Shown: positions 8,793 to 39,684 of the stretch, one piece after another
How positions within the stretch are numbered: the stretch's first letter is position 1
Layout: each line of letters starts with the position of its first letter
Assembly (NCBI GenBank): GCA_937975855.1
Contig: CALJTT010000004.1
Coordinates: 5,583 to 69,582, forward strand
DNA: 64,000 bases
Direction: 5' to 3'
From: Minisyncoccota bacterium
GTDB taxonomy: Bacteria > Patescibacteriota > Minisyncoccia > Phycocordibacterales > UBA918
Translations under genes and position numbers: made by a program
The notes under the pieces: model-generated
Databases searched by the model: none
Seen by the model: only the letters and a program-made list of their open reading frames with translations
What the model was told of the DNA's origin: nothing

Positions 8793-8840
8793 GGCAAAAT
8801 TATAACAACTTTTTGCACTGAAAATCCCTCATATGCACAA

Positions 8841-8866
8841 ACAAAAAACCCACCTCGTGGTGGGAG
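8841..8866 (-). terminator. Rho-independent terminator downstream of the WxL-like gene 8912..10042 (minus-strand sense: cccacc-acga-ggtggg then UUUUUUGU)
   Basis: Plus strand aaaaaacccacctcgtggtgggagatagg. The revcomp gives the hairpin followed directly by a T6 run. Confidence 0.7.
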
Positions 8867-8911
8867 ATAGGATTTTTTGTTTGTAACTCCAAGCTTAGAG
8901 TCCAGTTTCGG

Positions 8912-10042: not shown

Positions 10043-10283
10043 AGTACTCTACGTTGTATTAGTTCATAGTTGTCGCGTGTGTGGTACACGCATGTGACAA
10101 TTTCTCCAACAAGGTCTCCACTCCGAATCGGAGAAAACCACGAACGCATTCACAGAGCCACACCGGCTGAAGTGCTCGCGCAAAAAGCGCTTAGTACCAC
10201 TAATTGAGTACTACCTCCATGAATACTCCCCTATTGTACTTTGGTCAGTTAAGACAAACTTCGATTATGCACAAAAACTGCTG

Positions 10284-11423: not shown

Positions 11424-12333
11424 AAAGTATCGCGATCAAAATGGCAAACACCGGGAGCAAAATCGAAATCTTGTGTGCCAAAGACAAACCAACAAATCCA
11501 AAGTTAGCCGCCTGTACTGTGCCAGCAGGTAAAACAGTCAACGACAGGTCACCCTCCTGCTTAAGCTCGTCGCTGTTGAACACCCTATATCTGGCAATAT
11601 AACTACCGGCCGGCAATCGTGTCGGCAAAGATGCTGATACAGTTTCTGTGTTGTACGGTGAGATCTTGGTAATCTTCCCCACATTAGAAGTCTCCTCCAG
11701 TAAGACTTCGCCAGTTTTATCATAAATTCTGAACTCAACATCTGAAGGTGAGATTTCTACGTTACCAGTGTTCTCTATCAACATGTCGAAAACGATTTTT
11801 CCAGGGAAGAACAACCAAGCAAGTTTGGAACCTTCGTTCAGATCCGATACAGAAATTTTTCTGACTCTAAAATCTTCAATCTTTTTATCTATAACGGAAA
11901 GATTTATATCGACCCGCGCTCCTAATGAAATGTTAACTGCACCCTGTGTAACAACCCCGTCGGATGGCACAGTTCTGATTCTAATGGCACCTCCATACTC
12001 GGTAAATCCTGCGTCAGGCGGAACGCTGACACGAACCGTCATCGGCACTTTTTGAACACCGGCGGGTAATATGATCTCTTCGCCTTCAGCAATCTGAAGC
12101 CAACCTTCGAGGTCAGGGGCATCAATGGTTATCTCTGCCTTCTGCTCATCAGACGGATCGCTTCGGACCAATAGAATCTGTTGTTCGTAAATGGAGTTTC
12201 TGGTCAAGCTAGTGTTGCGCACGTACGGAGGAGTAATACCGAAGCCCGCTTGAACTACACTAATTTCAAGCGCAAGAAAAGCGACAAAGGTAAACACCAA
12301 AAAAAGCCAACTCTTCCGCTTCGATAAAATCAT
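11386..12333 (-). CDS. Cell-surface protein with signal peptide and C-terminal TM anchor plus basic tail, DUF916/CscA-like (partner of WxL-like proteins)
   Basis: 315-aa ORF with signal (LFLVFTFVAFLALEISVVQA). The ectodomain has the alternating-hydrophobic pattern typical of DUF916 (GFGITPPYV...ILLV.SDPS...ITIDAPD..W). C-terminal TM ILLPVFAILIAILYVVFV followed by RRKQKGR. Paralog at 39685..40749. Confidence 0.4.
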   Translation of the reverse strand: MILSKRKSWLFLVFTFVAFLALEISVVQAGFGITPPYVRNTSLTRNSIYEQQILLVRSDPSDEQKAEITIDAPDLEGWLQIAEGEEIILPAGVQKVPMTVRVSVPPDAGFTEYGGAIRIRTVPSDGVVTQGAVNISLGARVDINLSVIDKKIEDFRVRKISVSDLNEGSKLAWLFFPGKIVFDMLIENTGNVEISPSDVEFRIYDKTGEVLLEETSNVGKITKISPYNTETVSASLPTRLPAGSYIARYRVFNSDELKQEGDLSLTVLPAGTVQAANFGFVGLSLAHKISILLPVFAILIAILYVVFVRRKQKGR

Positions 12334-12426
12334 GACAGTGTATCTATTATCGTTAATATGACCTTAAAACGCAACAACCACTGCTGGATAACAGTGGTTG
12401 TTGAAAAACATGTTTAGGTGCGTGAA

Positions 12427-14328
12427 CTACCAGTCAACAGCTTCTGCAATAACGGCTGTAAATGTGTTCAATCCTTCGTAGCTACCAGCTACTGTAATCG
12501 GAGTCGGGTCAGCGCCACCAGGAACATAGATACCCCAGTAAGTTGTTCCCCTAGATGCTGTTGTGGTAGCCGTTGTTGTTGACTTCAGAACATCAAGTTC
12601 AAGTTCTTGGTTTGTAGTTGATGACAATACAAGTCCAGTTGTATTATATGCAACAGTTGTGTCAGAGAACTCCTGGTAAGTGGAGTCTATCGTCGAAGAG
12701 GAAGCTCCTCCACAAGGTGTTCCGACACTGAAGTTTGGACACATTGATTCACCTCTTACTTCTTGGTCAATACCGGTATTTCCGATGTTAATTATTTCAG
12801 AAGTAGTCGTGCCCGCGTCGCCACCTAGCAATGTATATCCATCACCTGGAGCGAGTGCGCCGTAAGGAATTTCAGCTGTTGCAAGGTCAAGGGCTGCAAA
12901 TTGAAGTACTTCGACACCGATGTTTGAAGCCACTAGACTACTAGTTGCAAAGTTGTCATCACTAGGAGCTACTGCTGCAAGCCAGTTTTCTGCCTCAAAC
13001 GGTGAAGCGACAGATCCGTTATCAGTTGCGTCAGCGACAAACCAAAGTGGGAATGTACAGTTAAACTCTTGCGTGTCATCAGTGATCCCAGTACAGCTAG
13101 TTGTAGAGGCTGTACATGTCAGATTCCAAGTAGAAGTTGCAACTCCGCTGGTGTAACAATTGTTTGGGTCGTAATCAGGAGTACCTGAGTTACAGCTGGT
13201 TGTCCCTATACCTGAACGATATACAGATACTTCAAAGCCAACAATTTCACTAGATGTGGCACCTGAACTGTTAATGCAGCTGTTTCCATCAGACGCAGTG
13301 AAGTCAAGCGAGAAGCCAGGGGTCTGATCACCAGGAACAGTCAGTGCTATATCAGCACCACCGTTAAGGTTAATGTTAGCCCCCAGAATCGTTGGAGCAA
13401 CGTTGTTGATGTCAAAAGAACCAACAATTGGAGCAGATGCTTCGTGTCCATGTTCGTCAACCAAGAAACCGACTGCGGGGTATGTTCCGTCACGGACCGG
13501 CGAACTAACTGCATAAGAAGAGGTGGCGTTAATTATGCCGTTGAAGGTTGAACTTCCAAGGGAGTTCGTAACACAGCTGTTAGTAGTAGTGCTGTAGTCG
13601 ATAGCTTGCTGACAAACTACAAGTGTTAGTGTGTCCGAAGCATCCACAATGTCAGGGTCAGTCGAAGTAGAGAAGAAGTTTAGAGTAGCTCCTGGATCAA
13701 CCGGTCCATCGTTGTAGAAGTCAGTTAGAACTGGTCGGCTGTTCATGTGGAAAGGAGGAGCTGTATCATCGGTAGTCGTACCTTGTGTTGCTATAGTTGT
13801 ACATTCAGGTTGTACCAAATCACCATCACAAACCCAAGCGAACCAGTCGTTTGATTCTGAGAATTGTGTACCAGGATCGTCAGCAAGCTCAACTGTGGTT
13901 GTTGAAACTAGTGCTACTGTGTCAGATGGTGTCGCTGTGGATACTCCCCACTGAACTCCTCCACCACAAGTTGGCGCCGCCCCGATCTGTGGTGTAGGCG
14001 AAGCGTTGGTGCTACATATCAATAAATAGTAGTCAGCCCCGTTGGCGTCGCTACCAACTGCTGTCCATTGAATTTCCTCACCAGAGTTAGTGGGAGTTGA
14101 AGTTGAAGACCCTCCGATTTCAAAAGGCTGAACAACAAAAGTTGGAGGAGTGTTCAAAACAGTCAAACTGGTGGTAGCGGTTTGCGCCGACACTCGCTGT
14201 AATTCTTGGTTACCCACATCCACCATCAAGGCAAACATGAAAACACAAACTCCTACTACGGCAGAAAGAATCGATATTCTTCCGGCTGTTTTGGCAAAAC
14301 GTGGCAATTCATCTAAGTTGTACGACAT
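12427..14328 (-). CDS. Secreted/N-anchored Thr/Ser-rich surface protein. It ends with the same Y-W-G-I...N-x-F-T-A C-terminal tag as the giant protein.
   Basis: 633-aa ORF with N-terminal TM (ISILSAVVGVCVFMFALMV). The C-terminus ...LELDVLKSTTTATTT..TTYWGIYVPGGADPTPITVAGSYEGLNTFTAVIAEAVDW parallels the giant protein end ...LELDLSKPTTTTPGVTDNLYWGIEVPFGSASRPHTGINSFTAIGD. Confidence 0.5.
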   Translation of the reverse strand: MSYNLDELPRFAKTAGRISILSAVVGVCVFMFALMVDVGNQELQRVSAQTATTSLTVLNTPPTFVVQPFEIGGSSTSTPTNSGEEIQWTAVGSDANGADYYLLICSTNASPTPQIGAAPTCGGGVQWGVSTATPSDTVALVSTTTVELADDPGTQFSESNDWFAWVCDGDLVQPECTTIATQGTTTDDTAPPFHMNSRPVLTDFYNDGPVDPGATLNFFSTSTDPDIVDASDTLTLVVCQQAIDYSTTTNSCVTNSLGSSTFNGIINATSSYAVSSPVRDGTYPAVGFLVDEHGHEASAPIVGSFDINNVAPTILGANINLNGGADIALTVPGDQTPGFSLDFTASDGNSCINSSGATSSEIVGFEVSVYRSGIGTTSCNSGTPDYDPNNCYTSGVATSTWNLTCTASTTSCTGITDDTQEFNCTFPLWFVADATDNGSVASPFEAENWLAAVAPSDDNFATSSLVASNIGVEVLQFAALDLATAEIPYGALAPGDGYTLLGGDAGTTTSEIINIGNTGIDQEVRGESMCPNFSVGTPCGGASSSTIDSTYQEFSDTTVAYNTTGLVLSSTTNQELELDVLKSTTTATTTASRGTTYWGIYVPGGADPTPITVAGSYEGLNTFTAVIAEAVDW

Positions 14329-14423
14329 ACGTATAAAATATTACTAATTTTCCTACTTATTGTAACGTTATTAACTGGGTAAATCACAGGTTATACACAG
14401 CTAATACACAGGATTTACATTGG

Positions 14424-15638
14424 TTATTCGTACCTAATCGCATCCAGTGGGTTCAAAGTAGAAGCTCGTCTTGCGGGAAATATTCCTGTTAGGTACCCAA
14501 CGGCAGCTGAGAATATAGCAATGAAAGCTAGGAAGTCCAAAGGAAAAGCAAATAATGAAACTGCCTGTCCACCATACTGACCCGCAATAAAGTTGAGGAA
14601 CAGGTTAACCGTTACCCCCAATATAACTCCCATCAAAATACCAGTCACTCCCCCTAGGAAACCTACAACGATTGATTCTGAAACAAAGAGATACTTCACG
14701 TCGTTTGGAGAGGCGCCAATTGTACGCATGATACCGATTTCTTTGGTCCGCTCTAGCAAGGTAACAGTCATGGTGTTGAACATACCGATAGCTGACACAA
14801 TAAGTGCAATTCCTCCAAATGTGGCCAAAACAGCCTGAATACCTTTGAAGATCTGCGTTGCTTGCTCAACAGTTTTTGATAAAGCGGTCACACGGTAACC
14901 TTCTTCAACTAGCCAAGCTTCCACCAAGGGTAGATTTTCGTTGTCCACAACATTAACCTGCACTCTTTCATATTCGTCGATGCCTACGTATTCACGCAAC
15001 TCTGGCAACATCATCAATGCGTTAAGAACGCCCTCTTCTTTGGTGATACCTTTTACTATGTATTCTTTGTCCAGAATAATCTCGTTGACCAAATCAGTTC
15101 CGTCATCCGCCGGTACCAGTAGACGAAAAGACACTCTTTCTCCAATAAAAGATTCGGCATCTTCGTCTTCAATTCCAAATAGTTTAAGCACCGCCGGTGA
15201 AAGCATGATCGACGAAGCGTCATTGATATCTTCTTCTACAAAAGCCTCTCCGGCACTAGGGGTAATACCGGCATATCGCAGATAGGCTGGCTCGGCACCT
15301 TGAACAAAAACGTTACCTGTCAGGCCTTTGTATGTGACCAAAGCTGGGAATCGCGCCAGCGGCGCTGCATCAACCACAGCCTCGTTTGCTTCAAATTTTT
15401 GAACAATTTCAGGTGTAAGGGTAAGACCTTGTGCGCCTGTAGCAGAAACACCTAATGACAACAAAGAGTCACCAAATACAATCTGCTCTAAGATAATTTG
15501 CTGCAAACCAAACCCTAGACCCACCAAAATAACCACTGCACCAGTTCCTACACCCATACCCAAAATCGTCAACCATGTACGCAACGGGTTGGTTTTAAAC
15601 ATTCGAGTGGATAGTTGCGCTAGGTCTTGAACTCGCAT
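14424..15638 (-). CDS. ABC transporter permease, MacB/FtsX family (N-terminal TM, large extracytoplasmic domain, C-terminal FtsX 3-TM bundle)
   Basis: 404-aa ORF. N-terminal TM LTILGMGVGTGAVVILVGLGFG. The C-terminus has FtsX-like helices (LATFGGIALIVSAIGMFNTMTVTLLERTKEIGIMRTIGA...). Placed 1 nt from the upstream ATPase gene. Confidence 0.7.
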   Translation of the reverse strand: MRVQDLAQLSTRMFKTNPLRTWLTILGMGVGTGAVVILVGLGFGLQQIILEQIVFGDSLLSLGVSATGAQGLTLTPEIVQKFEANEAVVDAAPLARFPALVTYKGLTGNVFVQGAEPAYLRYAGITPSAGEAFVEEDINDASSIMLSPAVLKLFGIEDEDAESFIGERVSFRLLVPADDGTDLVNEIILDKEYIVKGITKEEGVLNALMMLPELREYVGIDEYERVQVNVVDNENLPLVEAWLVEEGYRVTALSKTVEQATQIFKGIQAVLATFGGIALIVSAIGMFNTMTVTLLERTKEIGIMRTIGASPNDVKYLFVSESIVVGFLGGVTGILMGVILGVTVNLFLNFIAGQYGGQAVSLFAFPLDFLAFIAIFSAAVGYLTGIFPARRASTLNPLDAIRYE

Positions 15639-15639
15639 A

Positions 15640-16962
15640 TTACAGTTTGTAGCTTACGTCTACTCCTTGGGCAATAATTTTTTCGAAATATCTGGTCATG
15701 TCGTCGGCTTCGTTTTCTGAAAGCGCTAATCCTTTAGATCTGATCCCTTTCATTAACCTACTGTTGAACTCTTCGTCATTCGCTACACCAGTTACACGAT
15801 CAGCAATCAACTCGGTCATGTTTTCGTTTTGCTGTTTACTGAGCTTGATTCTGTGGTGATTTGCCAAGTGTTCACTCATGCGCTCGGCTAACTTGTCTTG
15901 CGAGAAGAAAATCGCGTCATTGTCTTTCCGCGCTCGGAAACGGCGAATATCATCAGAGTTTTTGATGATTCTTTCTGCCACTTTTGCCATACGCTTTGCT
16001 TCGTCTTCTGGAACCTCCACTCCCCCTCTTTCGCTTGGCTGCATAAGGCTTTTAATGAAAGAATCCCGATTGATTTTACCTTCGATGAACAAACCAACGG
16101 CGTGCTCCAGTCTGGCAATTTGTGAAAAAGTGTAGTCTTGTGTCAAAAAGTTGATCATACTTTTAACTCGCCAAGTTTCCACAGAGTCATATGGATACAA
16201 GCGTGCCAGCTGTTCTAGCTCAGTCACAATAGTCTCACCTTCACGAACAGGTTTGATCTGTTTTCGTTGTGGGTTAACCACTTCACGTAGGATTTTTCCG
16301 TCTTTGAGGTAATACACGCGGTGGGCGTAACTAAGGTGAGCCGCGTTATGTGACACCATAATAATAGTTCGTCGGTCGAACGTGTTAATTTCGTCAATCT
16401 TGTCCATCACCTGCTGGGTAGACACCGAGTCGAGGTTACCAGTCGGCTCGTCGGCCAGAAGAATCTTGGGATCGTTAACCATGCTGCGCGACACCGATAC
16501 ACGCTGCTGCTGACCTCCAGAAAGCATAGCGGGAATTTTGCCTGAGACGTGACCTACACCAAAGCGATCAAGCAGAGACTGGGCCCGGCGATCTCTGGTA
16601 GTTTTGTCAGCATCACAAAAAATCATCGGCAAAGCCACATTGTCGAGAACAGACAACGACATAATGAGGTTGAAGGACTGGAAAATAATACCCATCACGT
16701 GGCGCTGGAAGTAAACTCGCTCAGATGGAGGGTAAGAATAAACGTCATCCCCTTTTACCAACAAAGTGCCTTCACCTGGCGGTAGTGACCCCTGGATCGA
16801 ATACATGAGCGTGGATTTACCACACCCAGACGGACCAAAAAGAATGATGTATTCACCTTCGAAGATATCAGTGTTCACACCAGAAAGAGCCTTGAATTCA
16901 TTGCTTTTTCCTTGGTTATAGATGATCGATAGATCACGCGCTACGATAAGAGGCTTCGCCAT
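15640..16962 (-). CDS. ABC transporter ATP-binding protein (MacB/LolD-like) with an unusual ~200-aa C-terminal helical extension
   Basis: Walker A GPSGCGKST, signature LSGGQQQRVSVSRS, Walker B ILLADEPTGNLD, H-loop VSHN. After ~residue 235 there is an extra charged helical domain not typical of LolD/MacB ATPases. Confidence 0.75.
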   Translation of the reverse strand: MAKPLIVARDLSIIYNQGKSNEFKALSGVNTDIFEGEYIILFGPSGCGKSTLMYSIQGSLPPGEGTLLVKGDDVYSYPPSERVYFQRHVMGIIFQSFNLIMSLSVLDNVALPMIFCDADKTTRDRRAQSLLDRFGVGHVSGKIPAMLSGGQQQRVSVSRSMVNDPKILLADEPTGNLDSVSTQQVMDKIDEINTFDRRTIIMVSHNAAHLSYAHRVYYLKDGKILREVVNPQRKQIKPVREGETIVTELEQLARLYPYDSVETWRVKSMINFLTQDYTFSQIARLEHAVGLFIEGKINRDSFIKSLMQPSERGGVEVPEDEAKRMAKVAERIIKNSDDIRRFRARKDNDAIFFSQDKLAERMSEHLANHHRIKLSKQQNENMTELIADRVTGVANDEEFNSRLMKGIRSKGLALSENEADDMTRYFEKIIAQGVDVSYKL

Positions 16963-16965
16963 AAA

Positions 16966-18507
16966 CTATGCGCCAATCTTATTAACCCAACCAAACGTCG
17001 ATTCAAAGTTCTCGATAATCAAGTCGATGATGTTCTTTTCTTGGATCGGAGTGAACAGTACGAACTTTTCACTCTGAACTTGGTTACTCGCTTCGTCAAA
17101 ACAATTTAGCCAGAAAGTGTATACAGTTGCTGGAGCGAAGTCGATTATTACCTCGACATGTGTAGTGTTGTATTCGACCAACTCTTTCTCGATTTCGAAT
17201 TGCTCAGACGCACCAGAGGCTCCTTCTTCATACGTCATGATACAGCTAGCCGGTTCGTCAGTGACCCATTCAACAATCGTTTGAATACGCGATTCGCTAC
17301 CAGGGAACAAGGTCGAATCGTTAGTTACGTTAGTGATGATTGGTGGCTGTACGTCACGAACTGTAATGAACTGAATCGGCTGACTACGCACGCGGTCTCC
17401 GCCTGAGTTCTCGACGTTTACAAAAGCGACGTATCGGGTACCGAGCGTCAGGTCGGCAAGTCGCATTTGGTGAGTGGTAGCAAGGGTTGGCCGCCCAACA
17501 GAGTTCTGTGCCCCGGTGGTTTGGTCCTGGAAATCAATTAGGGCTTTGGTAGGAACGTTTGTGTCCCAAGCTAGAGTAGCGGCGTTTTCTTCAACTTTAA
17601 CTACACGAAGATTGCGGATTTCCGGTGCAGTGGCTTTGGTTTGAAAATCGTACACTCGACTTTCGCCAGTAATACCAAATTCGTCAGTTGAAAGTACCTT
17701 GAAACTATACTGGACAAAGGGATTTAGTCCGATGAGGCGGATTTCGTGGTCAGTAGTTTGCCCCTGTGTAGACGACTGGGAAAACTCAAAGTTCGTACCA
17801 TCAAACTGTGCTGTCGGTGAAAATAGTACTTCTGAACTGGCAGGCCGATCTGTTATCCATTTTACTAACGCAGTGTTGGTCTCAGGAATAACCGTCGGAG
17901 GACCAACAATAGTCAGATCCTCGGTGATACCCTTAATAGCCTTGACCGTTTCGTTGACAATTTCTTGCAAAACCTGAGGATTGGTAATTTCTTTGATTTC
18001 TTCGATGATTTCTTCAGATTTGATTTGTTCGTTGAATTTACCTGGCCCAATACCTGAACCGCTGCCGTCAGCCTCACCTGACTTTGGCGCTCCTGTTGTG
18101 TCGATGCGGTAGTCAGCAGAAATACCCTGGTTACCAAACTCGTCCGACGACACAACGCGGAAAAAGTAAGTACGACCAGGCTCCAAATCGTCTAAAGTTA
18201 TGGAGTGTTGCGTCTTATCAGCGACGGGAACACGGCTGATCCCATAGTTTGGCTGCAACCCGTAGTTAATTGCAGAGTCAGCTTCTTCGTCAGTTTCCCA
18301 AGTTATTTGCAGAGTTGATTCATCCACATTAATGATCTGCAGATTGGAGATTTCTGGCGGATCACGATCGTCTGATTGTGCAATAGCAAGACTTGGCATA
18401 CTCACTTGCAAAAGCAGCAAGAAAATTAAGAAGGTGTCTATAAAGAACCGGGATCTCATTGTTCTAATCCTAGCATGTGCTTGGTTGTGATTTAATAAGT
18501 AATTCAT
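16966..18507 (-). CDS. Secreted protein with ~4 fibronectin type III-like domains
   Basis: Signal (FLIFLLLLQVSMPSLAIAQS). Repeated FN3-like modules (PPEISNLQIINVDESTLQITWETD..., APEIRNLRVVKVEENAATLAWDT..., PPIITNVTNDS...IVEWVTDEP). Confidence 0.55.
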   Translation of the reverse strand: MNYLLNHNQAHARIRTMRSRFFIDTFLIFLLLLQVSMPSLAIAQSDDRDPPEISNLQIINVDESTLQITWETDEEADSAINYGLQPNYGISRVPVADKTQHSITLDDLEPGRTYFFRVVSSDEFGNQGISADYRIDTTGAPKSGEADGSGSGIGPGKFNEQIKSEEIIEEIKEITNPQVLQEIVNETVKAIKGITEDLTIVGPPTVIPETNTALVKWITDRPASSEVLFSPTAQFDGTNFEFSQSSTQGQTTDHEIRLIGLNPFVQYSFKVLSTDEFGITGESRVYDFQTKATAPEIRNLRVVKVEENAATLAWDTNVPTKALIDFQDQTTGAQNSVGRPTLATTHQMRLADLTLGTRYVAFVNVENSGGDRVRSQPIQFITVRDVQPPIITNVTNDSTLFPGSESRIQTIVEWVTDEPASCIMTYEEGASGASEQFEIEKELVEYNTTHVEVIIDFAPATVYTFWLNCFDEASNQVQSEKFVLFTPIQEKNIIDLIIENFESTFGWVNKIGA

Positions 18508-18510
18508 AGG

Positions 18511-21500
18511 TTAATCGCCGATTGCGGTAAATGAGTTGATGCCCGTATGGGGCCTGCTGGCTGAGCCGAACGGTACTTCAATACCCCAATATAAATTGTC
18601 AGTTACGCCAGGAGTTGTCGTTGTTGGCTTACTGAGATCAAGTTCAAGATTGGCTGGAGTTACAGTAAGTGCGCTACATCCCACACATGCTGCGTAGTTA
18701 AATGTACTAGTGGCGTACCTCTGCTGGGCTGCTGCGATCACAGAACTGGCGCCATCAGACATGTCAGTTCCTGCTATTTGTACGTCGATGGACTCGTTTC
18801 CGATGTTATGTAGGGTTACTGCCGGGTTGAAAGCCCCAGTGTTATTGGTCACCTCGACAACACCGTAGGCAATGCTGTTTTGTATATCTAGCGCTCGCAA
18901 CGTCAGCAACTCAACGCCGGTTGATGTCACAAAGTCTACCGCGCCAGTGGTGTCCTCGACCTCCATAAACGCAAACCATTCTTCTGCGCCATCTAGGTCA
19001 GTTGGATCGGCGTGGTAGACAATCGGCGCACTACACTGCAACGAACAAGCGTTAGTTGTACAGTTGGTGTAAGTACAGCTGCTGGTGGCCACATAACAAT
19101 TATTGTCATCTGGCGAACAAGCGGCTCCCACAGAAGTTTTGTAGAAAGTTGTTGTGGCGCTCACGATGTCCGCAATCCCGTTTAGATCAGTAACAGTTGT
19201 AGAGGCGATGATTTCTGTTGTAGTCCCGGCAGATAGTGAAATATCCAGTCCGTCGTTAAGAGAGAGTGAGCCGAGAACCGGATCGAAGCGCAATGTCAGT
19301 TCTGCAACCTCTAGATAAGTATCAAGTTCTGTACCTTGGTCGGTAACTCTGAAGCATAAATTCTGGTCGTCAACATTAATAGTTGGTGTGATTACATACT
19401 CGATTTCGGTGTACTCGAACATAGCGATATCCAAATCCCCAGTCTCATTTGACGGATCTTCCCTAAGCTCGCCAGCGGTGAATTGACCAGACACGTCGTT
19501 TAGCAGGTCGACAGTGGTTTCTCCATTAGTAACTTCGGTTGAAGTTTGCATACAGACTGGCGACAAGCCACAACTACTTTGAACAGGAACGTCCAAATAA
19601 CCAGCGGTCGACACAGCTTCACAACTTGGCGCTGACCCCTTTGGCACATATTCAAGTGCGAAGCGCTGAGCGGTGATCGCTCCACCGCTGTTTTCGACGG
19701 CCAATCGTAGCCTGGCAGTGTCGCCAGCCTCAAAGGTAGCGGCGGTATTTTGTTCAGCAGCCCATGTTGCTCCCCCGTCTGACTGCTCTGCACCAAAGCG
19801 AACGTTTGGCTTGCTAGTCATTGTCGGTCGTGAACTAAAGCTGTCCCAACCTCCGTTATGGAACCAGAATGTAAATCCATACCCACCAGTTGTGTAAGTA
19901 GAGTCCGAGGCTGAAAATGAAGTCACTTGTGTGCCGGCGTCGTTATACAATCGAAGGTCGAATGTGTCGTTCGTCCGCCAGTCAACTTCCACCTCGTACC
20001 AACCTGTTGTGTACGTAACAGTAGAAGAGCCAATGATGGTTCCTGACGCATCGTTCTCGACCGCGTCACGCACCAATGTGATACGGTCTGTTCCAAATTG
20101 CTCGATACACACAGCATAATTTTCGTTGGTGGATCCAGGAGACTGCACACCAAACAAGACACAGGTTTCGTCACTAGTACCTGCGCTGGTGTCGACATAC
20201 TGCTGGTAGCGGATTGTCTCACCTTGACTGACACTCTGGTCAAAGCGGTACATACCACCCAAAGTTGCCCGACTACTCTCATTGCCTGCGTTCCCAAGTC
20301 CGTACGTACCATCAAATGCGAAAGAAGCATCTGTAGCAAACAAAGCAGTTTGGCCAGTGTATTCTGCAATATCGTTGTCTTCAAAATCGTCAGCCGCGAC
20401 AAAAACTTGCTCGAGGTCGCTAGAGGACGTGGCAGACGGATTGTTGTAGTACATGTACAAAACGGTGTCAGACTCCGCTGGCATTGTTGGAACTTGAACC
20501 CATACTTCTACAATCGTGCTATCGGTTGAAGATCCGATCCAGTATGGAACCGTCGTGGTTCCGGTGTTGTCGGTGAAGCGCAAGTCGTCAAAGTCAGAGC
20601 GCATATCAGAATCGTAAGGAACTGTTACCTGAACAGCTACATCGGTATAGGTTGCCGCGTCAGCGTTGGTTAGGCGAACCGGCTGACGAGCGGCCCAATC
20701 TGTGTTCATCCATTCAATATCTGGTACCTGGGCGTTACCATCGTCGTTACGCCAACGGAAATCCGTCTGCTGAGTAATCAGACAAGAACTGTCGCCCCAC
20801 CGAACGGATCCACAATCTGTGGCGCCGTCGATATCGTACACTTCACCATCGAGATTTCCGACATGACTGGCAAATGTCCAAACATTACCCGTAACACCCG
20901 ACAGAGTAATGTTGTTACCCGTAATAGACGCCGACGTGGCGAACCGCGAGCCCGTGATAATCAATGACGCGTTGGCGTTAACTGTAGACGAAGACAAAGT
21001 CATCAGCGACCCGCCATCGACAGCCAGCTCGAAGTCACCGTAAGACAGCGAAGAAATAGTTGGCACTCCAGACAACTGCCAGCCGGCGGCATCAGTATTA
21101 CGCACCGAGTAATATAAGGCATTGAGTGCACCTGAGCTTACTGCAAATGAGTAAGTTCCAGATCCTTGATTGGTAATGTTTGTTTCGTTGCCTGCCTCAC
21201 CGACAATCTGTAACGATCCGCCGTCGACAGTTGCACTACTGTTGTCAGCCAACCGCACAGTCACGACACGCTCGCTGCCCGATAGGTCAGTACCATCAAA
21301 GTCAGTGGCGTAGCTCCAATATTCAGTTGTTGTAGAAATATGATAATCACCGTAAATATTCAAGTCTCCGTCAGCGCCAGCGTGGTCTTGGGAATACCAC
21401 GATGATGAACTTGGCACACTGACAGTTGTCGCGCTGCTGTTCCAGCTGGAGATGTCCGTATTTTCTCCCAAAACGAGTGTGTCATAAGCTTCGGTCGGGA

Positions 21501-24500
21501 TGGTCTTGTCGTTTGTTTCGTACTCGTTTGAACCGTCAAGTACTAATGTTGTGCTTGTCCAGGTTGTAGCTGCTCCACCGACGTCGTTGCTGAACACGCC
21601 ACCAACATACAGCACGCTGCCTGGAACCACTGTAAACGAACCAGCGTTACTCAAACTAAAGTTGTTAGTTGTGGTCGCGCTATCAGTCAAAGTCCAGCCA
21701 CCAGTACCAGCAATTACAACATTATAAAGGTCGTTAGCGCCAGGATCGATAAACTCGCCAGCGTCATTGGAATTAAATAATAGTGTGCCGGACGCGTGAC
21801 TGTACGTCCCGCCCGACACATCAAACGATCCGCCGATTGCCAACGTGCCGGTACCAACCGTAAATGTGCCACCGGTCAAAGTTAGGGAATCTAACAAACT
21901 AGCTGACATGTCAATCAGAGTGTAGTCACCGGCTGCAGCGGCGATCGTTAGACTGTTTAGGTCATTCCCAGAAAGCGTTACAAGGTTACCTCCGGTCGTA
22001 CTTGTTAACACAACCTCGCCGCCGGCGTGTGCAATTGTGCCATCGACCACAAAATCACCAGCCACAGTCAGCGTACCTGTAGGCAGCGTAACTGTTCCAT
22101 CGACAACTATAAACGAAGCTGTTGCTGTGGCTGTCGTGTCAGACATCGTCCAGGTCCCAGGACCCGAGAACAACACTTCGTTAGCGTCAGACCCACCAAA
22201 AGTTACGGTTTTACCGGCGACGGCCGAGTCAAAAAGTAAAGTTCCGCTGTTAGCGTCAAAGGCTCCGCCACTGTTTACAAACGACCCGCTGACAGTTGTC
22301 GTAGAGCTTGGCAGAGTCACAGTACCGTCAGTGATCAAGAAATTGTTATTGATGTCACCGTCAAGCATTGTCCAGTCACCACTGCCAGCGAATGCCAAAT
22401 TGTAGAAACCACTGTCGTTAGTGTCTACAGTCCGTCCCGCAGATGACGACGTAAAGGTTGTGCTAGAAGTTTGTGCATCAAAAGTTGCATCGGTTTCAGA
22501 AATAAGACTACCACCCAGGCTGTATACCTCGGCTGCCCCGCCGTCAAAGGTAGAGCCAGAGAGCAGTTTAAGAGTACCGTCGTAGTCCAGAGCACTGCCG
22601 CCGGTTACGGTCATGTCTCCTTGTGGTGCAAATGTTTTGTCTGTCCAGACTATCAATCCAAAGCCACTATCAACCGTCAACGTGTCTGGAGCAGAGTCAA
22701 CCGCTGTAAACGGAATAGCGGCGTCGTCTGAAGAGTCCCACACTGACATATCAGCAATCGTTAACGGGTCAGTTGCTTCGTGGCGCACAATTACGCGGTT
22801 TTGGTAAATATCGAAGTTGCTTATGTTCGAAACCGGGTCGGCTGTGACTGTAGCCCCTTCTTCGCCGGTAGCTGGCAGGAGATACGCAATGATTGAGTCC
22901 CCGGGTGAATATGTCACACCTGTCACGCTGTAAACACCACTACCGTCACAGGTAGAGCTATAAGTCGTCAAGCCAGCGACGACAACATTCACCGCTGTAG
23001 TTGCGCCATCACACACAGACGCGCCGGCGGTGGTTACACCTTCATCAGAGTACACCGTACCGGAAATAGTAATGTTTGCTGCCGAGTCGTCCCACGAAAC
23101 GTAACCTGGGTCGCCGTCAGGGTCTACGTCAAATCCTTCTCCAGCGATATCGCCGTAGTGGTTTGTGAAGCGCCATGAACTGACACTCGTGCCGGTCGCT
23201 GTTGCGCCAAAGCCACTAGCTGCGCCGTCGAGATACAGCTGATTAAGCGTAAACGCTTTGGCCGGATTGGCAGTAATAGCTGTTCCACCCACTGTCACCG
23301 CGCTACCTCCAGTTTGTGACACTCCGATAGAACCATGCGACAAAGAGCCGATCGACGCCGAGCCAGTGATAACTAAACCATCAATGTTCAAATCGCTTAA
23401 TGTGTAGTAGTCAAAAGTACTAGACGCCGTCCCGCCGATCGTCAATGCGTACGTGCCAGAACCTTGATTTTCTACAGTACTTGATGCACTTGCAGATCCT
23501 AGTACAGACAGCTGTCCGCCGGTGATGGTCACGCTACCGTTGTCAGCTATGTAAACCGAGGCTATGCGCTCACTGCCAGCTAGGCTGGTTCCGTCAAAGT
23601 CAGTAGCGTAGCTCCAGTGATCGTTAGCTGCTGTCTGGTTATACGATCCCCAGATGTACAGGTCGCCATCTACATTAGAGTGATCCTGAGAATACAACGA
23701 GGCTGTTGTGTCGACAGTATAACTAAGAGCGTCACTATTCCACATCCTGACCTGAGTTGTGCCGTCCACCTCAAGTGTCGCGTACGAGTCAGCGGTGGTA
23801 GATGCGTTAATGGCGTAATTGTTGCCTCCGTATAGTCGCAATGTGGAACCTGTCCACGTTGTGGGTGCTCCACCAATGTCGTTAAAGAACGTTCCGCCAA
23901 CAGACAGCGTTTGCCCGGAATTCAAAGTAAATGTATTTGCGTCGGTTAACAACCAGCTGTCTGTGGCTGTGGCATGTTCAGTTACTGTTACGTCGCCCGT
24001 AGCGTCGATAACAACATTTGCGAAATCACTGCTACCAGCAGCAACAGAGATCGCGCCCGACCCATCAAAAGTCAAAGTTCCTGTGCCGGCGGTTAGTACG
24101 CCATTATTGTCATAACTGCCAGCAATAGTGGTCGTGGCTAAGTCACTAAGTACCCAAACGCCATTTGATTCTATTGTCACGTCGCCATTTATGTCGAACT
24201 GCGGATCGTTGGTAGTTTGATCAAAAGTCGTGGCGGCCACACCTGCAATCACCAAATCGTTGTCGACAATAATACCTGGTGTACCCGTAGTGTATGTTGC
24301 CGGCGCGCCACTGGCTGCCAACGTCAGATTGTAATATTCGGTAGCGAGAACTTCCGAGCCGGGCCCGCTGTAGACAACTGTGCTGGTATCCGCCAAGAAC
24401 GTCCCCTCCTCCACAAAGACTACACCCGTGCCAGCCAAATCCCAGATAGTCGACCCGGCGTCAAGGAAGTGAGCCATCTCGATAGTCAAGACCCCACCGA

Positions 24501-27500
24501 TTGTGGTGGTGCTTGTAAACAGCGGTGTTGTTGTGCCGACTGACAAGGTGTCACCCAACTGCAAATTATGGAAAGTCCACGAACCAGCCCCACCAAGATT
24601 ATTGGCTACGGCCATTGTAGTTGTGCCGCCATTTAGCAACACCGTTCCTGCACCAGCAAAGTCGCCACTTTCAACATAGATATCACCATTGCCGGACAAT
24701 ACACCGTCAGTCATAAGTACATCACCGAGCACGCGAATATCAGCCGTCAAAGCCCAACCGCCGCCTGCACCATCAAACGTAAGATTGTTGAAAGTGACCT
24801 CATCGCCAGCCGTGATAAGTTTGCCAGTGGTCGAAGCGTTCATTAATACTGTGGTGCTGGCAGCATTGAATGTACTGCTCGCACCAAGAGTAAACCGCCC
24901 ACCGATAGCCAAAGTTGATGTAGCAAAAGCATTGAATGTAGCATTGTCGGCCAAAGTTAGTGAACCATCGTAACTGGTGCCAGCACCTTCGCCGGCCAGG
25001 GTCACTTCTCCGCCTGGAGTAAAGGTAGTGGAAGCCCAAACATACAACTCGTTTCCAGACAGCACAGTCAAGGTGTCAGAGTCTGTGTTCGTGGCAGCGA
25101 CAAATTGCAAATCGACATCTTCACTATTGTCGCGCACGGCCAGTTGATTAATTGTCAATGCTGCCAAATCTTCGTGACGGACAATCACACGGTTCGCATA
25201 AATATCGGCATCAAGAATGTTGGCCGTCGGTGTGCGAGTGATGATGCTTCCCTGTTCGCCGCCTGCCGCGTTGTTTAGATAGATGGTCAAGGCGGGGTCT
25301 CCAACAATGGTAATACCGCTGATACTGTAAGCCCCGGTGCCGGCATCACACGATCCTGTGTAGGGTGCTGGATTTCCTTCCACATAGACATTTACAACCG
25401 CGGTAGCCCCGTCACAGGTAGGTCCTCCCAAAGGTGTAACGCCCGCGTCAGCATAAACAGTTCCTGCCATGGTGATCACCAACAAACTGTCGTCGAAGCG
25501 TATAGACCCCGGGTCACCTGTGTCGCTGTCGTTTGATTCACCATACAAGTTTCCGGCGCCACTTCTGAACCACCAATATGACAAAGGTGTTCCGTCCGTC
25601 TGGGACACGTTGGTAGCAAATATCGCCGAAGTTGTGGAGAAGGAAATTTCGTATAGTTGATTAGCCGGATTTGCATCAATAGTAGTCGAAGAAAGCGTAA
25701 GCGCCGTCCCAGCCACGGCGTCGACTTGGTAAGAACCATTTTCGAATACCCCAACTGAGACCGCGTCCAGTAGTGACAGACCCGTGCTACCCAGGTTACT
25801 AAACGTATGATATTGCGCGTCGAATGTACCGCCAGAAACAGTGACGTTGTAAGTTCCACTTCCTTGATTGGCAACAGTTGTCGATGCCGCAAAGTCGCCG
25901 ATGATTTCGAAAGTCACAGAGTCGAAATCTGCGCTGGCGCCATCGGCAAATCGCACGTTCGCTTGCCTTTGTGCCGAAAGTGCTGCGAGATCAGTTCCGT
26001 CAAAGTCAGTAGCGTAGCTCCAGTACTCATTGCCGCCGGCTATGTTGTAATTTCCAAATATATATAAGTCACCATCGATCGCACCGTGGTCTTGTGAATA
26101 AAGCGAGCCAGTAGCGTCAACGTCATAGACAACAGCATCTGAGTTCCACATTTTGATGTCAGTGTCGTTTGCCACCCTTATCGTGCCATAGGTATCTCCA
26201 GGGTCTGTTTCGTTGTTTATGCTATAGGCACCAGCCTCGAGAGACAACGTGCTGCCTGTCCAGGTCGTAGAAGCTCCGCCCACATAGTTGTGAAATTCCC
26301 CTGCTACCGAAAGTGATTCCCCTGACTGCATCGTGAAGTCGCTGCTGCTAGCGAGGGTAAATGTGCCAGTTGTAGTTGCCGACGACACAACAGTCCAGCC
26401 GCCAGTCTCACTGGCGATCAGCACGTCATGGAGTGGATCTGCGCCAAAGTCGATAGTCTCTCCATTGTCGAGCGAGTCAAAGACTACCAAGCTTGTACCT
26501 GCACTCACGGTTGCCTGGTTGTCGTACGACCCACCGATTGTGAATGTGTCAGGTAAAGTCAGCGCACCGCCGTAAACAAACAGATCGCCAGTCGCCAGAG
26601 CGTTGGTGTCAGAGAAACTCCAGCTGCCAATTCCGTCAAACACCACGTTGTTGAAACTAGAGCCACTGGTGGTCAAGACTTCTGCGACACTACTATAGAA
26701 ACGTGTAGTTCCGGTTCCGCCATCAAAACTGCCCGAGTCCGCCACCAATGACCCACCAATAGCAAACACGCCGCTTGGGAACAAGACACTGCCCTGGAGA
26801 ATATTTACATCATTGGTGGAAGTAGCGTTTGTATCGGTCATAGTCCAGGTACCAGCACCTTCGAAAGTCATGTTGTGAGCCACATTTGTAAACTCGGCAC
26901 CGTCGAATGTGATGTTTTCTGGGCCGTCGGACGTAAAGTACAGTACGCCGTTATTATGCAAAAACGCACCGCCGGTTGAGTCAAACGAACCGTCAATTGT
27001 AGTGGTAGCAGTCGGTAGGGTCACCGTTCCAGTTGCAATGGTGAGATTATTGTTAACGAACACTTCCGTTTCAGCAAAGGACCATGAGCCCCCAACCCCA
27101 GTGAAAGACAGATCATAAAACGCGTCGGCTGCCGAAATGATCACATGACTGGTCGTCGTTGCAACAAAGAACACCTCACCTTGCCTAGCTACAAAAGCGT
27201 TATTGTTAGTCCAGTCGCCGTACACGTACAGATCGTAGTTGTTTGATGACGCGTCTAGAGTGTCGTCAATACCAATGGTTATCGACTGCGCAGCAACATC
27301 ACTGCCCAAGGAGATTATTTTTGAACTACCGTCAATCACAACATGTCCGATATTTTGTAGCGTTACATTTTTGTCTGACCAAATAGATGCAGAGTTTCCA
27401 TCCAGAGTGGTCGTGCCAATACCTGTCCAAAAACCAGTTGCGCCAGTAGTTATGTCTCCCACAACATTAATGCTGGTTGTAGCCCGAGCAAGGGTTCCAG

Positions 27501-30500
27501 TTTCAACGGTCAGATTACCATTAACGTCAAGCAAGGGTGACACTGTCCAAATCGCACTACTGGTAGTCGAACCAAAGGTCAGGCTGCCAAACGTAGTCGT
27601 TGCGCCAGTGTTGTCAATCACCTCATTTCCGACCAAGGCGCTAAATAAAACTGTCGAGTCGCTTAGGCTTGTTGTTGCACTATTTTCCCATGAACCAGAA
27701 ACTTCCATCGAATGCGTTTCCAGCGTGAAGGAGCCGTTATTTTCAAAGTCATGAGTGATAATGTCACCCTCTGGCTGATAAAGCGCGCCAGACTTTATAT
27801 AAAGTTCAGCATCAGTACAACCGGCGTCAGCACAAGTATTTAATACACTACCAGAGAGGGACAAGAACACGTCTTCATCGTTAGTAAAGGTGTAGCTGCC
27901 AATATCAAGGTTGGTAAGCGGTGTCGAAGTTGCGTCGTTAGAGCCAATACTGACATGCCTTTCATATAACTCGAATCCGTCTATGTCGCCAATTCCGTCA
28001 TATAAAGTAACACCAACAGCCTCAGCTGCGTCTGCAGCCCCAGAGACAAATACTGTAACGATGTCACCGGGGAAAACTGTGACATTGTCGATTGACCAGA
28101 CTCCCGCGGAAATAGTCCCGACCTTACCAGCCTGCAGCACACCATTAACAGCCACGACGACGTTACCGCTAGTCACGTTGGTGGATTGATCGTAACCTTG
28201 GGCAGTTCCTGAAATCGTCAATCCTGCCGCCCAGGTTACAGCCCAGTCGTACATTTCTGGACAGTTACCCGAACCATCACAAGCCAGCTCTGCAAATGGA
28301 CGAACTACGTTGTATGTAAATCGGTCTAGACCCGACAAGTCAATTGGGCTAGTGGTGGTTCCAAGCTCGTTAACCGGCAGGTCGCTTGGTGGGATCATCT
28401 GCCAGCTATTGGTAGCGGACAAATATTGTACAAAGTAGCGTATTTCACTTGTGCCGGGCTGGAAATCGTTCCAGGCAAATTCTTGCCAGTACGGACCGGT
28501 TCCGTCTTCAAAATAAACTGGCGGACTGACAATCGTGCTACCTGTGCTACCTGGCTGACGAGCACCTATATCGTACGGACGACCGTACGGGCTAGTGTCT
28601 ACAGACACATTTGTAACCAGATCAACAGTCGTGCTCCAGCTAGATCCATTCCAAGTAGAGAAGCGCAACGTGTCGTTAGCGTTGTCCAAAAATGCACCAA
28701 GAATGAGACCTTCGCCCATACGCTCTAGCTGCATAGTGGCGGTATTAATGATTGTGTTCACTTGAGTCTCGGCACTCCAGGCTGTATTGTTGTACGTTTG
28801 GTAGTTAGTGGCCGTAGCATCGCTGTACGTCAACATGATGTGATTGTCGCGGCCGGAAGTTGTCTCGAAAGAACAGTCAAAGCTGGGCTCAGTCTTTACA
28901 CTGGCTGTTTCTAGATTATCGTCGAGCGTCCAGGCTGCTCCATCCCACCTTACGACCGCAATATCACTAGTATCATCAACCAGACAAAGGGCCATGTCGT
29001 CAGAACCTTCGTCTCGTACGAGCGACCCCCACTCAAAGTCGTTACCAATAGTTTGATTCGCCGCAGCGCTCCAAGCGGTGCCGTTCCAACTACTCCAGGT
29101 GAAGCGGGCTGGATTACCATCAGAAGCAACTATCACAGCCTGGCCACCACTCTCTTCGTATTCCAAAGCCATACCGGCATACGCCGATTCAGTAATTCGA
29201 CCAAGCGTAGTTGGGTTACCCCAAGCAGACCCATCCCACACCTGAGCTTCAAATGGGTTCCCGTCTGACCCACGCACCATAATCACCATTTCGTCAGATG
29301 TTGGATTGGCGGCCAGTTCTATCCAGGTACAGTTGGTTGTCTCGGCTACATTTATAGTCCCACCACTGGTCCAGGTCGTGCCGTCCCACACATAATAAGA
29401 TGGATCAGCGTCACCATCACAATATACGGCAATTGCATCACCCGATAATGTTTCGTACTCGACATCAAACCCACGGGCACTGATGTCGCTAACACTGGTT
29501 GTGAGTTCTTGTTGGCTGCGCCATTCTCCAATTGTGTAAGTTTGAGCATTGATGTCAGCGTCAGTTCCAAGTGTTACAGCAATATACTCTTCCCGTGTAG
29601 GAGCAGCTTTCACTACAGACCATTTTAGTGGTGCTGAGATGTCTAACAATGTCCCCTCCTCAGACAAAACTGTACCTGTCCACAACCGATAACGCGGTTC
29701 GGTTTCAATTCCTTCACCATAGACAATCATCGCCTCGGTAGCGGTGGTCGCCACGGTCAAATACCCAGCTTCAGTCGAAATAGTACCGGAAAGAATATCA
29801 GTATCGAATTGATCTTTTGTGGTTTGGAACCAGGTCGAGACGTCAGTTCCGGGAATAACGGTCAGGCTGCGCTCAACCGTCCAAAATGAATAGACATTGT
29901 CACCAGTTGGATCTTTGGCTCGGACGCGCCACCAATATGTGGTCGTACCAGTCAAAGCATCAGCTGGTTGGATCTCAAAGCGAATGCGCTCGTTAGCGTT
30001 GAAAGGGCTGGTGTCAGCGCCAGTTACGATATTGGTAAACCCACCGTCGACATCTGATGTGCGGGTAGTTGATGCTGCAAAATCACGGTCTGTTGACCAG
30101 GAAATTTGGTAAGTCAAATCTTCGCTTTGCGGATCGTCTGCCACAAACTCAAAGGTTGGAGTTGTCGTTCCTACCTGCTCGTTGGCAAACAAACTGAAAA
30201 TAGTTGGTGTCTCTACTTTGTAACCCCAATTAATAGTCCAGTCTTGCAAAGTTGGAGAACCGCCACTGTTAGTGAAAGTGGCGACCACTCGCAAGGTGTC
30301 GTACTCGCCGGTATCAACATCCAGTAAGGGCACGGGCGAGGTGCCGAACCCGCTACTATTTCCAGGCAGTGCAGAATCAGGAACTAGGGACCAGGCGCTG
30401 CCGTCGTAATATTCGATTTGATAAGAAATGCTGCCCGTGGTTTCAACGTCGGTAAAAACAAAGTCCTCCCAAACTGTTCCGTTAACGCCGTCAAAGAACA

Positions 30501-36697: not shown

Positions 36698-36700
36698 AAA

Positions 36701-39662: not shown

Positions 39663-39684
39663 GTCTGTATTATATCAGTACAGC

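Follow-up and report, generated by a model that had tools for sequence, protein, structure and literature searches.

A portable C-terminal beta-sandwich domain on surface proteins of Patescibacteria and its conserved gene neighborhood

A giant surface protein and a 633-residue secreted protein, both encoded in a 64,000-nucleotide stretch of Minisyncoccota DNA (hereafter the window, meaning the whole stretch; all genes discussed lie on its minus strand), end in the same beta-sandwich domain of about 150 residues. This C-terminal domain (CTD) is a portable, folded and strictly C-terminal module of secreted surface proteins, nearly all of them from Patescibacteria, and it recurs on otherwise different proteins within a rigid gene neighborhood. 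The CTD is previously uncatalogued, being absent from Pfam and NCBIfam, and a literature search returned no description of it or of Parcubacteria operons that combine cohesin/dockerin and pilin genes. We rate the chances as about even that the CTD is a docking domain in a surface display system resembling the WxL systems of Firmicutes and the Pam pili of candidate phyla radiation (CPR) bacteria. A binding partner, binding by strand complementation and a position on a filament are proposed below as parts of a model.

The shared ends belong to a folded domain

Translation of the minus strand gives ...LELDLSKPTTTTPGVTDNLYWGIEVPFGSASRPHTGINSFTAIGD as the end of the giant protein (from 18511..19800) and ...LELDVLKSTTTATTTASRGTTYWGIYVPGGADPTPITVAGSYEGLNTFTAVIAEAVDW, also given as ...TTYWGIYVPGGADPTPITVAGSYEGLNTFTAVIAEAVDW, as that of the 633-residue protein, each followed by a stop codon. 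The original prediction had quoted these ends and their coordinates correctly, and had read them as a short Y-W-G-I ... G-x-N-x-F-T-A tag on otherwise unrelated proteins. The features concerned are:

18511..35061, minus strand: giant surface protein of 5,516 residues, with an N-terminal hydrophobic anchor or signal, one DUF2341 domain (Pfam) and the CTD at its extreme C-terminus.
18511..18591, minus strand: the tag on the giant as first read, YWGIEVPFGSASRPHTGINSFTAIGD plus the stop codon, from translation and motif position.
18514..18948, minus strand: CTD of the giant, about 145 residues.
18937..19272, minus strand: Cys-containing beta domain of the giant (residues 5264-5375), common to the 633-residue protein (upstream-domain HMM E=5e-20; BLASTP).
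12427..14328, minus strand: 633-residue secreted protein, the conserved 'small' CTD protein of the operon, with an AxA signal peptide, the mature N-terminus TATTS(L/V)TVLNTPP and membership in a 54-member N-terminal cluster.
12430..12936, minus strand: CTD of the 633-residue protein, 169 residues, with seven main strands in the structure model and the orthologue motif given below.

The similarity between the two ends is real. BLASTP of the last 430 residues of the giant against the 633-residue protein gave a composition-adjusted E=1e-12, with 28% identity over some 310 columns. A hidden Markov model (HMM) of the CTD built from foreign sequences only, leaving out both window proteins, matched 2 of the 470 open reading frames (ORFs) of the window, the giant and the 633-residue protein, and the giant's C-terminus scored 81.8 bits over profile positions 4-149 of 156. 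When the CTD is aligned by itself, the last 145 residues of the giant span the whole domain at 33% identity to the 633-residue CTD, and the two have in common the motifs I.YG, N.GN..ID, Q.Y, LELD..K, YWGI.VP and G.N.FTA. Orthologous giants at two further loci (L001 and L002) end in the same CTD, and 57 orthologues of the C-terminal half of the 633-residue protein carry a K-(T/S)-rich loop followed by YWGI.VP..IT.AG.Y.G.NTF. Given the Thr/Ser richness of the region and the shortness of the visible motif, a chance or compositional likeness of Thr-rich C-termini was considered; the BLASTP and independent HMM scores, the retention of the CTD in orthologous giants and the 1,275 family members described below rule it out, and we put its probability at practically nil.

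The pattern [YFHW]WG[ILV] occurs just four times in window ORFs of at least 100 residues, always in one region, the last 26-82 residues of the giant, the 633-residue protein and two pilin-like proteins of 376 and 375 residues. What the giant and the 633-residue protein share is not a short tag of some 30 residues but the end of a folded domain. Because a second, Cys-containing beta domain common to both precedes the CTD, the two proteins are related over their last 310 residues or so, and the description of them as otherwise unrelated does not hold.

AlphaFold2 (AF2) modeling of the C-terminal half of the 633-residue protein, from a 50-sequence alignment, predicted two beta domains with high confidence (predicted local distance difference test, pLDDT, 91.4; predicted TM-score, pTM, 0.86). 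In this model, the Cys-containing domain occupies residues ~14-158 and the CTD residues ~175-334, and the last two CTD strands are TTYWGIYVP and NTFTAVI (294-302 and 322-328). By alignment to the model, the tag on the giant likewise falls on the last two CTD strands. Thus modeled, the residues first read as a Y-W-G-I ... G-x-N-x-F-T-A tag form the terminal beta-hairpin of a beta sandwich some 150 residues long.

Immediately ahead of the penultimate CTD strand comes a loop rich in Thr and Ser (KPTTTTPG; KSTTTATTTA), at approximately 18592..18640 and 12520..12570. Its family consensus, K-T-T-S-T-S-T-P, may be a site of O-glycosylation; a modification has been reported on Ser356 of the pilin PamA (bioRxiv 10.64898/2026.03.03.709456).

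The CTD is a C-terminal module carried by many Patescibacteria proteins

When 1.84 billion representative proteins were searched exhaustively with the CTD profile in HMMER, 1,275 matched at E<=1e-3, 763 of them at E<=1e-10. Of the 144 new proteins among the matches listed, 141 have a CTD that ends no more than 10 residues short of the C-terminus; the host proteins are 94-7,440 residues long. Two long carriers end in ...YWGIEVPFGTASNPHTGVNTFTAVPD (7,440 residues) and ...YWGINVPIGSEPESYTGTNYFVATAPGG (6,513 residues), and the N-terminal part of the window's giant clusters with theirs. Overall, the N-terminal parts of 85 full-length carriers fell into 24 clusters, the largest of which (54 members) is the 633-residue family. 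The upstream Cys-containing domain directly precedes the CTD in 56 of 78 full-length carriers. The original idea of a common C-terminal module on surface proteins with differing N-terminal parts, and of its enrichment at C-termini, is borne out by these numbers.

Loci were collected from one genome per species, and 24 of the 26 came from records labeled as Kaiserbacteria, Paceibacteria/Paceibacterota, Parcubacteria, the Patescibacteria group, Elulimicrobium or Saccharibacteria (the latter in third-party annotation (TPA)-assembled bins). The remaining two are short contigs in non-CPR bins. Since the scan for these loci used a CTD alignment of six sequences, the 26 are biased toward the ~625-residue family. 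Both exceptional contigs, one of 6.2 kb in a Saprospiraceae bin (L012, CALDTK010000123.1) and one in an Ectothiorhodospiraceae bin (L037, PXAT01000168.1), carry the Patescibacteria operon; the Saprospiraceae contig is 100% identical to the window and was probably mis-binned.

Members of the 633-residue family have cleavable AxA signal peptides and no other anchor. Their mature N-terminus, (Q/D)TATT(S/T)VTVLNTPP.W (14150..14328 in the window), is strongly conserved in an alternating, strand-like pattern; judged from this pattern, it could be an N-terminal donor strand or merely the first strand of the first domain.

CTD genes occupy a conserved operon

The conserved gene order runs from a CTD giant (4,400-5,400 residues, with DUF2341) through an FN3 protein (~510 residues), an ATP-binding cassette (ABC) ATPase (440 residues), a MacB/FtsX permease (~400 residues) and a CTD protein of ~575-630 residues to a member of the 315-residue family, a dockerin protein (~380 residues), a member of the 376-residue family, a ~345-residue protein and a cohesin protein anchored by a transmembrane (TM) helix. 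The corresponding neighbors of the two CTD genes in the window, listed with the dockerin and cohesin genes of its second cluster, are:

16966..18507, minus strand: 513-residue secreted FN3-repeat protein, a conserved operon member (Pfam fn3 / Pur_ac_phosph_N; synteny).
14424..16962, minus strand: MacB/FtsX-type ABC transporter between the two CTD genes, permease at 14424..15638 and ATPase at 15640..16962 (Pfam families of orthologues; conserved position).
11386..12333, minus strand: 315-residue 'DUF916-like' protein with a signal peptide, a beta-rich ectodomain of ~260 residues and a C-terminal TM helix.
10284..11423 and 37283..39238, minus strand: dockerin proteins (Pfam Dockerin_1, E=7e-4 and 1.5e-6).
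8912..10042, minus strand: 376-residue Pam-pilin-like protein; the AF2 model has a nine-strand N-terminal sandwich, a linker strand (DTIFTFTI) and a seven-strand C-terminal domain with GHWGLSS and TLTYVATPVF.
5999..7768, 7728..8792 and 35159..36697, minus strand: cohesin-like proteins with a C-terminal TM helix (Pfam Cohesin, E=1e-5 and 4e-6).

Mapping of three HMMs onto the 26 genome loci revealed how rigid this neighborhood is. A gene of the 315-residue family directly followed the ~625-residue CTD gene in all 26, and a DUF916-like gene lay immediately downstream of a CTD gene in six of seven further loci with downstream sequence. Where at least 6 kb of upstream sequence was available (20 loci), a second, large CTD ORF lay ~4.2 kb upstream in 19, and a gene of the 376-residue family was found 1.3-2.5 kb downstream in each of the 19 loci with at least 2.5 kb on that side. 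Minimal triads of a large CTD gene, a smaller CTD gene and a DUF916-like gene also occur without the ABC block, encoding proteins of 1,024, 587 and 330 residues in L007/L008 and of 895, 563 and 312 residues in L010.

The position of the transporter suggests another role for the CTD. In the window, at L001, L002, L004 and L005 and at most of the genome loci, the FN3-ABC-FtsX block separates the giant from the ~625-residue CTD gene, and its ABC proteins are unusually conserved, at ~85% identity. CTDs of type IX secretion systems (T9SS) are beta sandwiches placed at the extreme C-terminus of cargo proteins that differ greatly in size, as is the CTD described here. The CTD could on these grounds be a sorting or secretion signal read by the MacB/FtsX-type transporter, in the manner of T9SS CTDs or of type I signals at the C-terminus, and might be cleaved off following export. 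We consider this clearly unlikely. Both carrier types have N-terminal Sec-type signals or anchors; pairs of CTD and DUF916-like genes lack adjacent ABC genes in L007/L008, L010 and L017; CPR cells are monoderm and therefore have no outer membrane to cross; and we know of no case in which a MacB-type pump reads a folded C-terminal domain.

The ~85% identity of the ABC proteins, taken across 12 loci, compares with 54-72% for the surface proteins (CTDs 54-56%, FN3 protein 72%). The ABC ATPase also has a C-terminal extension of ~200 residues.

A candidate partner and a model for docking

The conserved operon contains pilin-like and membrane-anchored two-domain genes, and for this reason the CTD most likely plugs surface proteins into a filament or anchor system. 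The most likely partner within it is the 315-residue protein, which the original prediction had also singled out, as a candidate only. This choice follows from its being the most constant neighbor of the CTD, one that persists in minimal triads without ABC genes or a nearby pilin, and from the presence of a paralogue beside the pilin paralogue of a second gene cluster:

39685..40749, minus strand: 354-residue paralogue of the DUF916-like protein, adjoining the second pilin gene (family HMM including this paralogue E=7e-76; ~21% identity to the 315-residue protein).

This second pairing indicates that the DUF916-like family accompanies pilins and CTD proteins alike. Analogy argues in the same direction, since strand insertion from a protein of this kind is how WxLIP acts, or is predicted to act, on WxL domains, and PamC/PamD on Pam pilins. 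In architecture, the 315-residue protein corresponds to both WxLIP and PamC/PamD. WxLIP has the architecture DUF916-DUF3324-TM, and AF2 predicts strand insertion between this partner and its carrier (PMC9772566, PMC10599100).

The 315-residue family comprises more than 1,915 clusters and equals the pilin family in size and conservation. As regards the label 'DUF916-like', the architecture of signal peptide, beta-rich ectodomain and C-terminal TM helix stands, also for the 354-residue paralogue, but all Pfam matches are below threshold, the paralogue's to WxLIP_PGBD (E=0.0067) included. Weak matches within the family were also obtained to the TcfC E-set (13 of 37 members, best E 7e-4) and to CopC (18 of 37, best E 1.2e-3).

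In the model that we favor, the CTD would be a docking module, and its payload, presumably adhesive, would be the N-terminal part, which varies and ranges in length from a few hundred residues to over 7,000. The CTD would fix this payload non-covalently to the surface apparatus encoded by the same operon, through a partner, with the 315-residue protein as candidate, that binds it by beta-strand complementation. The partner might then either retain the carrier at the membrane, as in the WxL model, or hand it to a filament of the 376-residue Pam-like pilin, which would place CTD proteins at the distal end, as in the Pam and FimH models.

Points against docking, and the relation to WxL domains

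Several results weigh against docking of this kind. Scans of the CTD against Pfam and NCBIfam, with single sequences and with sets of 23, 50 and 22, matched no family. In a Foldseek search of a PDB set without Pam or WxL-domain structures, the top matches of the CTD model were donor-strand-complemented CfaB/CfaE pilins (CfaB-CfaB and CfaE-CfaB fusions, E=5e-5), in itself a point for docking; as their TM-scores were only 0.30-0.35 and the remaining matches were generic immunoglobulin (Ig)-like domains, the fold speaks for a beta sandwich and not specifically for a pilin. The AF2 monomer of the CTD is confident and looks self-sufficient, and therefore does not suggest a missing strand. On the partner side, WxLIP_PGBD matched 2 of 37 members of the 315-residue family (best E the 0.0067 just given) and WxLIP_HBD 1 of 37 (best E 0.029), all below cutoff. 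The family profile does not find the solved WxLIP structure 9i1y, and a PDB sequence search with window proteins and family profiles returned no relatives. At one locus (L009, 2235..8069), a CTD pair of 1,381 and 552 residues has no adjacent gene of the 315-residue family, the flanking 329-residue gene being unrelated; among the loci seen, L009 alone departs from the triad rule. Finally, the co-evolution check proposed with the original prediction, between CTD and DUF916-like genes, was non-discriminating, as mirror-tree and partial Mantel tests on CTD, DUF916-like, pilin and FN3 proteins from 12 loci, with the ABC proteins as control, gave positive correlations for all pairs (r 0.25-0.79).

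The WxL family also bears on this question. The definition of WxL domains asks for two W-x-L motifs at the C-terminal end, spaced by ~68 (large) or 106 (small) residues, and more than 91% of these domains are from Firmicutes (PMC9772566); a WxL cluster holds two WxL proteins and one WxLIP (PMC10599100), a rule that the minimal triads mirror. The CTD could be a divergent true WxL domain that anchors proteins non-covalently to peptidoglycan, as was first proposed for WxL domains of Firmicutes. Its C-terminal position, the large payload N-terminal to it, its one W-x-[IL] motif and the weak match of the 354-residue paralogue to WxLIP_PGBD fit this idea, as does the likeness to the cluster definition of two carriers and one protein with a signal peptide, two Ig-like domains and a TM helix; two CTD genes and one signal-peptide/beta/TM gene are present in 19 of 20 loci with enough upstream sequence. 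We nevertheless regard it as very unlikely that the CTD is a true WxL domain. Pfam WxL (PF13731) matched none of 23 CTD and 36 pilin-family sequences at E<=10 and no window protein at E<=1, a result that counts against docking of WxL type as well. The dual W-x-L motif is absent: a single W-G-[IL] is followed by F-T-A, and the spacing is ~25 residues versus ~68-106 in WxL domains. The CTD family is also one of Patescibacteria, whereas WxL domains are predominantly those of Firmicutes. The relationship to the WxL profile that the original prediction had raised was thus not found. The pilin-like proteins, with W-G-L followed by Y-V-A 74 residues on, show a partial resemblance to WxL domains only.

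Relation of the CTD to the pilin-like proteins

Pam pili offer the other template for the docking model. PamA and PamB of Candidatus Mycosynbacter consist of an N-terminal domain with nine strands, a linker strand that is donated and a C-terminal domain with an open Ig-like fold, PamB having a mass of 38.7 kDa (bioRxiv 10.64898/2026.03.03.709456). The same pilus has an acceptor-only tip subunit, PamT, and chaperones with a membrane anchor, PamC and PamD (bioRxiv 10.64898/2026.03.03.709456). In the window, the 376-residue protein has two relatives:

40864..41991, minus strand: 375-residue paralogue of the pilin-like protein, 49% identical to the 376-residue protein.
37283..39238, minus strand: 651-residue protein with a pilin-type N-terminal domain, a Gly/Ser-rich linker, Big_6 and a dockerin (pilin HMM positions 13-202, E=1e-13; Pfam).

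Across candidate phyla, the 376-residue family counts more than 1,898 clusters, which are 60-70% identical. The AF2 model of the window protein (pLDDT 84.7, pTM 0.49) places nine strands at residues 44-179, an isolated one at 193-199 and another seven at 231-375. The lone strand lies in the linker peptide VDTIFTFTINGV, within an invariant VDTIFTFT that includes the invariant F193 and F195. Sub-threshold matches to the NCBIfam model NF058581 (CPR_Pam_pilin_C) were obtained for 30 of 36 family members (best E=1.1e-7); the window protein scored 21.8 bits against a cutoff of 55, mainly over profile positions 2-41 of 148. Foldseek with the pilin model, against the same PDB set, returned two-Ig MSCRAMM, integrin and cohesin-dyad structures. 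The Pam pilin architecture is confined to the 376-residue protein; the CTD proteins lack the N-terminal domain and linker.

The CTD itself might be a homologue of the pilin C-terminal acceptor domain and bind the linker donor strand, which would make the giant and the 633-residue protein tip subunits and the DUF916-like protein a transient chaperone only. Several features fit such a relationship. Both domains have seven main strands and the same order of motifs, IP[YF]G.L; N..(N/T)G[FI]...V; [FW](A/G)(T/L)SS; S(S/A)(S/T)TP.E[LV]; an aromatic-rich penultimate strand; and Y.(G/A).(N/L)T[FY].A. The pilin gene belongs to the same operon in the 19 loci that could be scored, and PamT is a precedent for an acceptor-only tip subunit. 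Direct comparison gave little in return. NF058581 matched 0 of 50 and 0 of 22 CTD members, and hhalign of the CTD against the pilin C-terminal domain reached P~0.01 and a probability of 4-5%, seeded on IP[YF]G.L at the domain starts; both results add to the points against a display system of Pam type. Small and enlarged profiles, local and global modes and the addition of AF2-derived secondary structure never raised this probability above 5%, and with secondary structure supplied the match reaches the next two strands. In addition, no pilin was detected within 5.7 kb downstream in L007/L008.

Two registers compete in these alignments, and an unfiltered hmmsearch (--max, both directions) of CTD against pilin gave weak matches in both. 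A colinear register, obtained by maximum accuracy (MAC) extension of the local hit, pairs QEFSDT with GHWGLSS, LSSTTNQELELDV with FVSASSSPVEVF, TYWGIYVP with VIYKVEVT, and YEGLNTFTAV with YTATLTYVATP; the seven main strands of both models and hairpin loops of similar length support it. The register that agrees with the original prediction pairs YWGI with HWGL, and Y.G.NTFTA with YAGGANFVSA (global hhalign, P=0.057). It scored equally well, with NTFTA opposite NFVSA, which argues further against homology. We favor the colinear register, although the alignments cannot prove either. In the original prediction, the ends of the two pilin-like proteins were held to be related to the tag. The motifs it named are there, GHWGLSS internally with the end TLTYVATPVF in the 376-residue protein and GHWGLTS internally with the end ILTYIATPTF in the 375-residue protein; the equation of YWGI with GHWGL, however, is only one of the two registers. 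These sequence comparisons do not allow homology to be demonstrated between the CTD and the C-terminal domain of the pilin, and we think it rather unlikely that the CTD is such an acceptor.

A docking domain in a display system remains our preferred reading of the CTD. The system as a whole resembles both WxL clusters and Pam pili, and its sequences fall short of the family models of each. In a more ambitious version, adhesins of 5,000-7,000 residues would form the tip subunits of a Parcubacteria filament of Pam type, built by donor-strand exchange, and the CTD would be the pilin-type acceptor domain that mounts them. The CTD, the C-terminal domain of Pam pilins and the WxL domain of Firmicutes, together with membrane-anchored two-Ig partners (the 315-residue family, PamC/PamD and WxLIP), would then all be members of a single, ancient 'anchored-chaperone' superfamily for display in monoderms. 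We offer this version as speculation, and doubt that it is correct.

Other features of the window

Two paralogous surface-protein clusters, 5999..35061 and 35159..41991, lie side by side on the minus strand, each with pilin-like, DUF916-like, dockerin and TM-anchored cohesin genes. The first alone has the pair of CTD proteins, the FN3 protein and the ABC transporter; additional genes in the second encode an Hsp20-like protein (36701..37231) and a TM protein of 143 residues. Cohesin-dockerin pairs of this CPR surface operon are kept in orthologous loci, and the cohesin ORFs at 5999..7768 and 7728..8792 overlap by 41 bases. A role as adaptor between filament and membrane is conceivable for the 651-residue fusion of a pilin-type domain and a dockerin, whose gene lies next to those of cohesins anchored in the membrane. 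Directly upstream of the second pilin cluster, 42321..44071 (minus strand) encodes an S24 LexA/UmuD-like peptidase (GDSM motif) and a Y-family-polymerase-like protein, both assigned by motif only. A 2,010-residue secreted protein at 46695..52727 (minus strand) combines a glucose/sorbosone dehydrogenase beta-propeller with PKD, CBM_4_9 and Big_7 repeats and has no CTD.

Significance and comparison with known systems

Parcubacteria and Paceibacteria are among the most abundant uncultured bacteria, and we know of no account of how they hold on to hosts or surfaces. The CTD marks a whole class of their surface proteins, in more than 1,200 clusters that include some of their largest genes, and ties this class to one operon with a Pam-like pilin. 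Its profile is a sequence handle with which candidate adhesins can be catalogued in any such genome, and the CTD and the 315-residue membrane protein are a named candidate pair for binding. The system may also represent a bridge between the WxL clusters of Firmicutes and the Pam pili of CPR bacteria. If the reading as tip subunits of a common superfamily were true, it would provide a concrete answer to how CPR episymbionts attach host-binding payloads to filaments, a point left open by the Pam preprint.

Among known systems, the CTD operon shares with Pam a CPR host, a 376-residue neighbor of PamA/PamB architecture and size with weak matches to NF058581, and a putatively chaperone-like protein with a C-terminal TM helix encoded alongside (the 315- and 354-residue proteins; PamC/PamD). 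As an acceptor-only tip subunit, PamT furthermore offers a parallel for docking by a domain that itself donates no strand. Pam is reported mainly in Saccharimonadia and Microgenomatia (bioRxiv 10.64898/2026.03.03.709456), whereas the window locus is of Parcubacteria/Paceibacteria type. Unlike Pam, moreover, the window has a 376-residue protein far below the NF058581 cutoff, a CTD that this model leaves unmatched and no adjoining ATP synthase genes, and the pam operon was described without a giant protein that has a shared C-terminal domain.

Like the Lwp/CscC WxL systems of Lactobacillales and Listeria, the CTD system has a C-terminal beta-rich domain (~150-180 residues in WxL proteins) with aromatic motifs in its last strands, variable adhesin-like payloads N-terminal to it, and two carriers with one protein that combines a signal peptide, two Ig-like domains and a C-terminal TM helix. 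It differs in the sequence respects set out above, with neither a Pfam WxL match nor a dual W-x-L motif in the CTD and with sub-threshold WxLIP matches in the partner, and in its Patescibacteria host. It differs also in an operon that includes a Pam-like pilin, cohesin/dockerin proteins and a MacB-type ABC transporter, and in payloads that reach 5,000-7,000 residues.

The tip adhesins of chaperone-usher pili (FimH, PapG, CfaE) likewise join an N-terminal binding part to a C-terminal Ig-like pilin domain completed by strand complementation, and fusions of CfaB and CfaE are the best PDB matches of the CTD. In contrast to these adhesins, the CTD matches at a TM-score of ~0.3 and its fold is not evidently incomplete; there is no usher and no outer membrane, and the payload is up to 50 times larger. 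With the T9SS CTD of Bacteroidota, the CTD has in common a beta sandwich at the extreme C-terminus of cargo that varies widely in size and function. Phylum and envelope are different, however, T9SS genes are absent, and the Pfam and NCBIfam scans reveal no sequence relation between the two.

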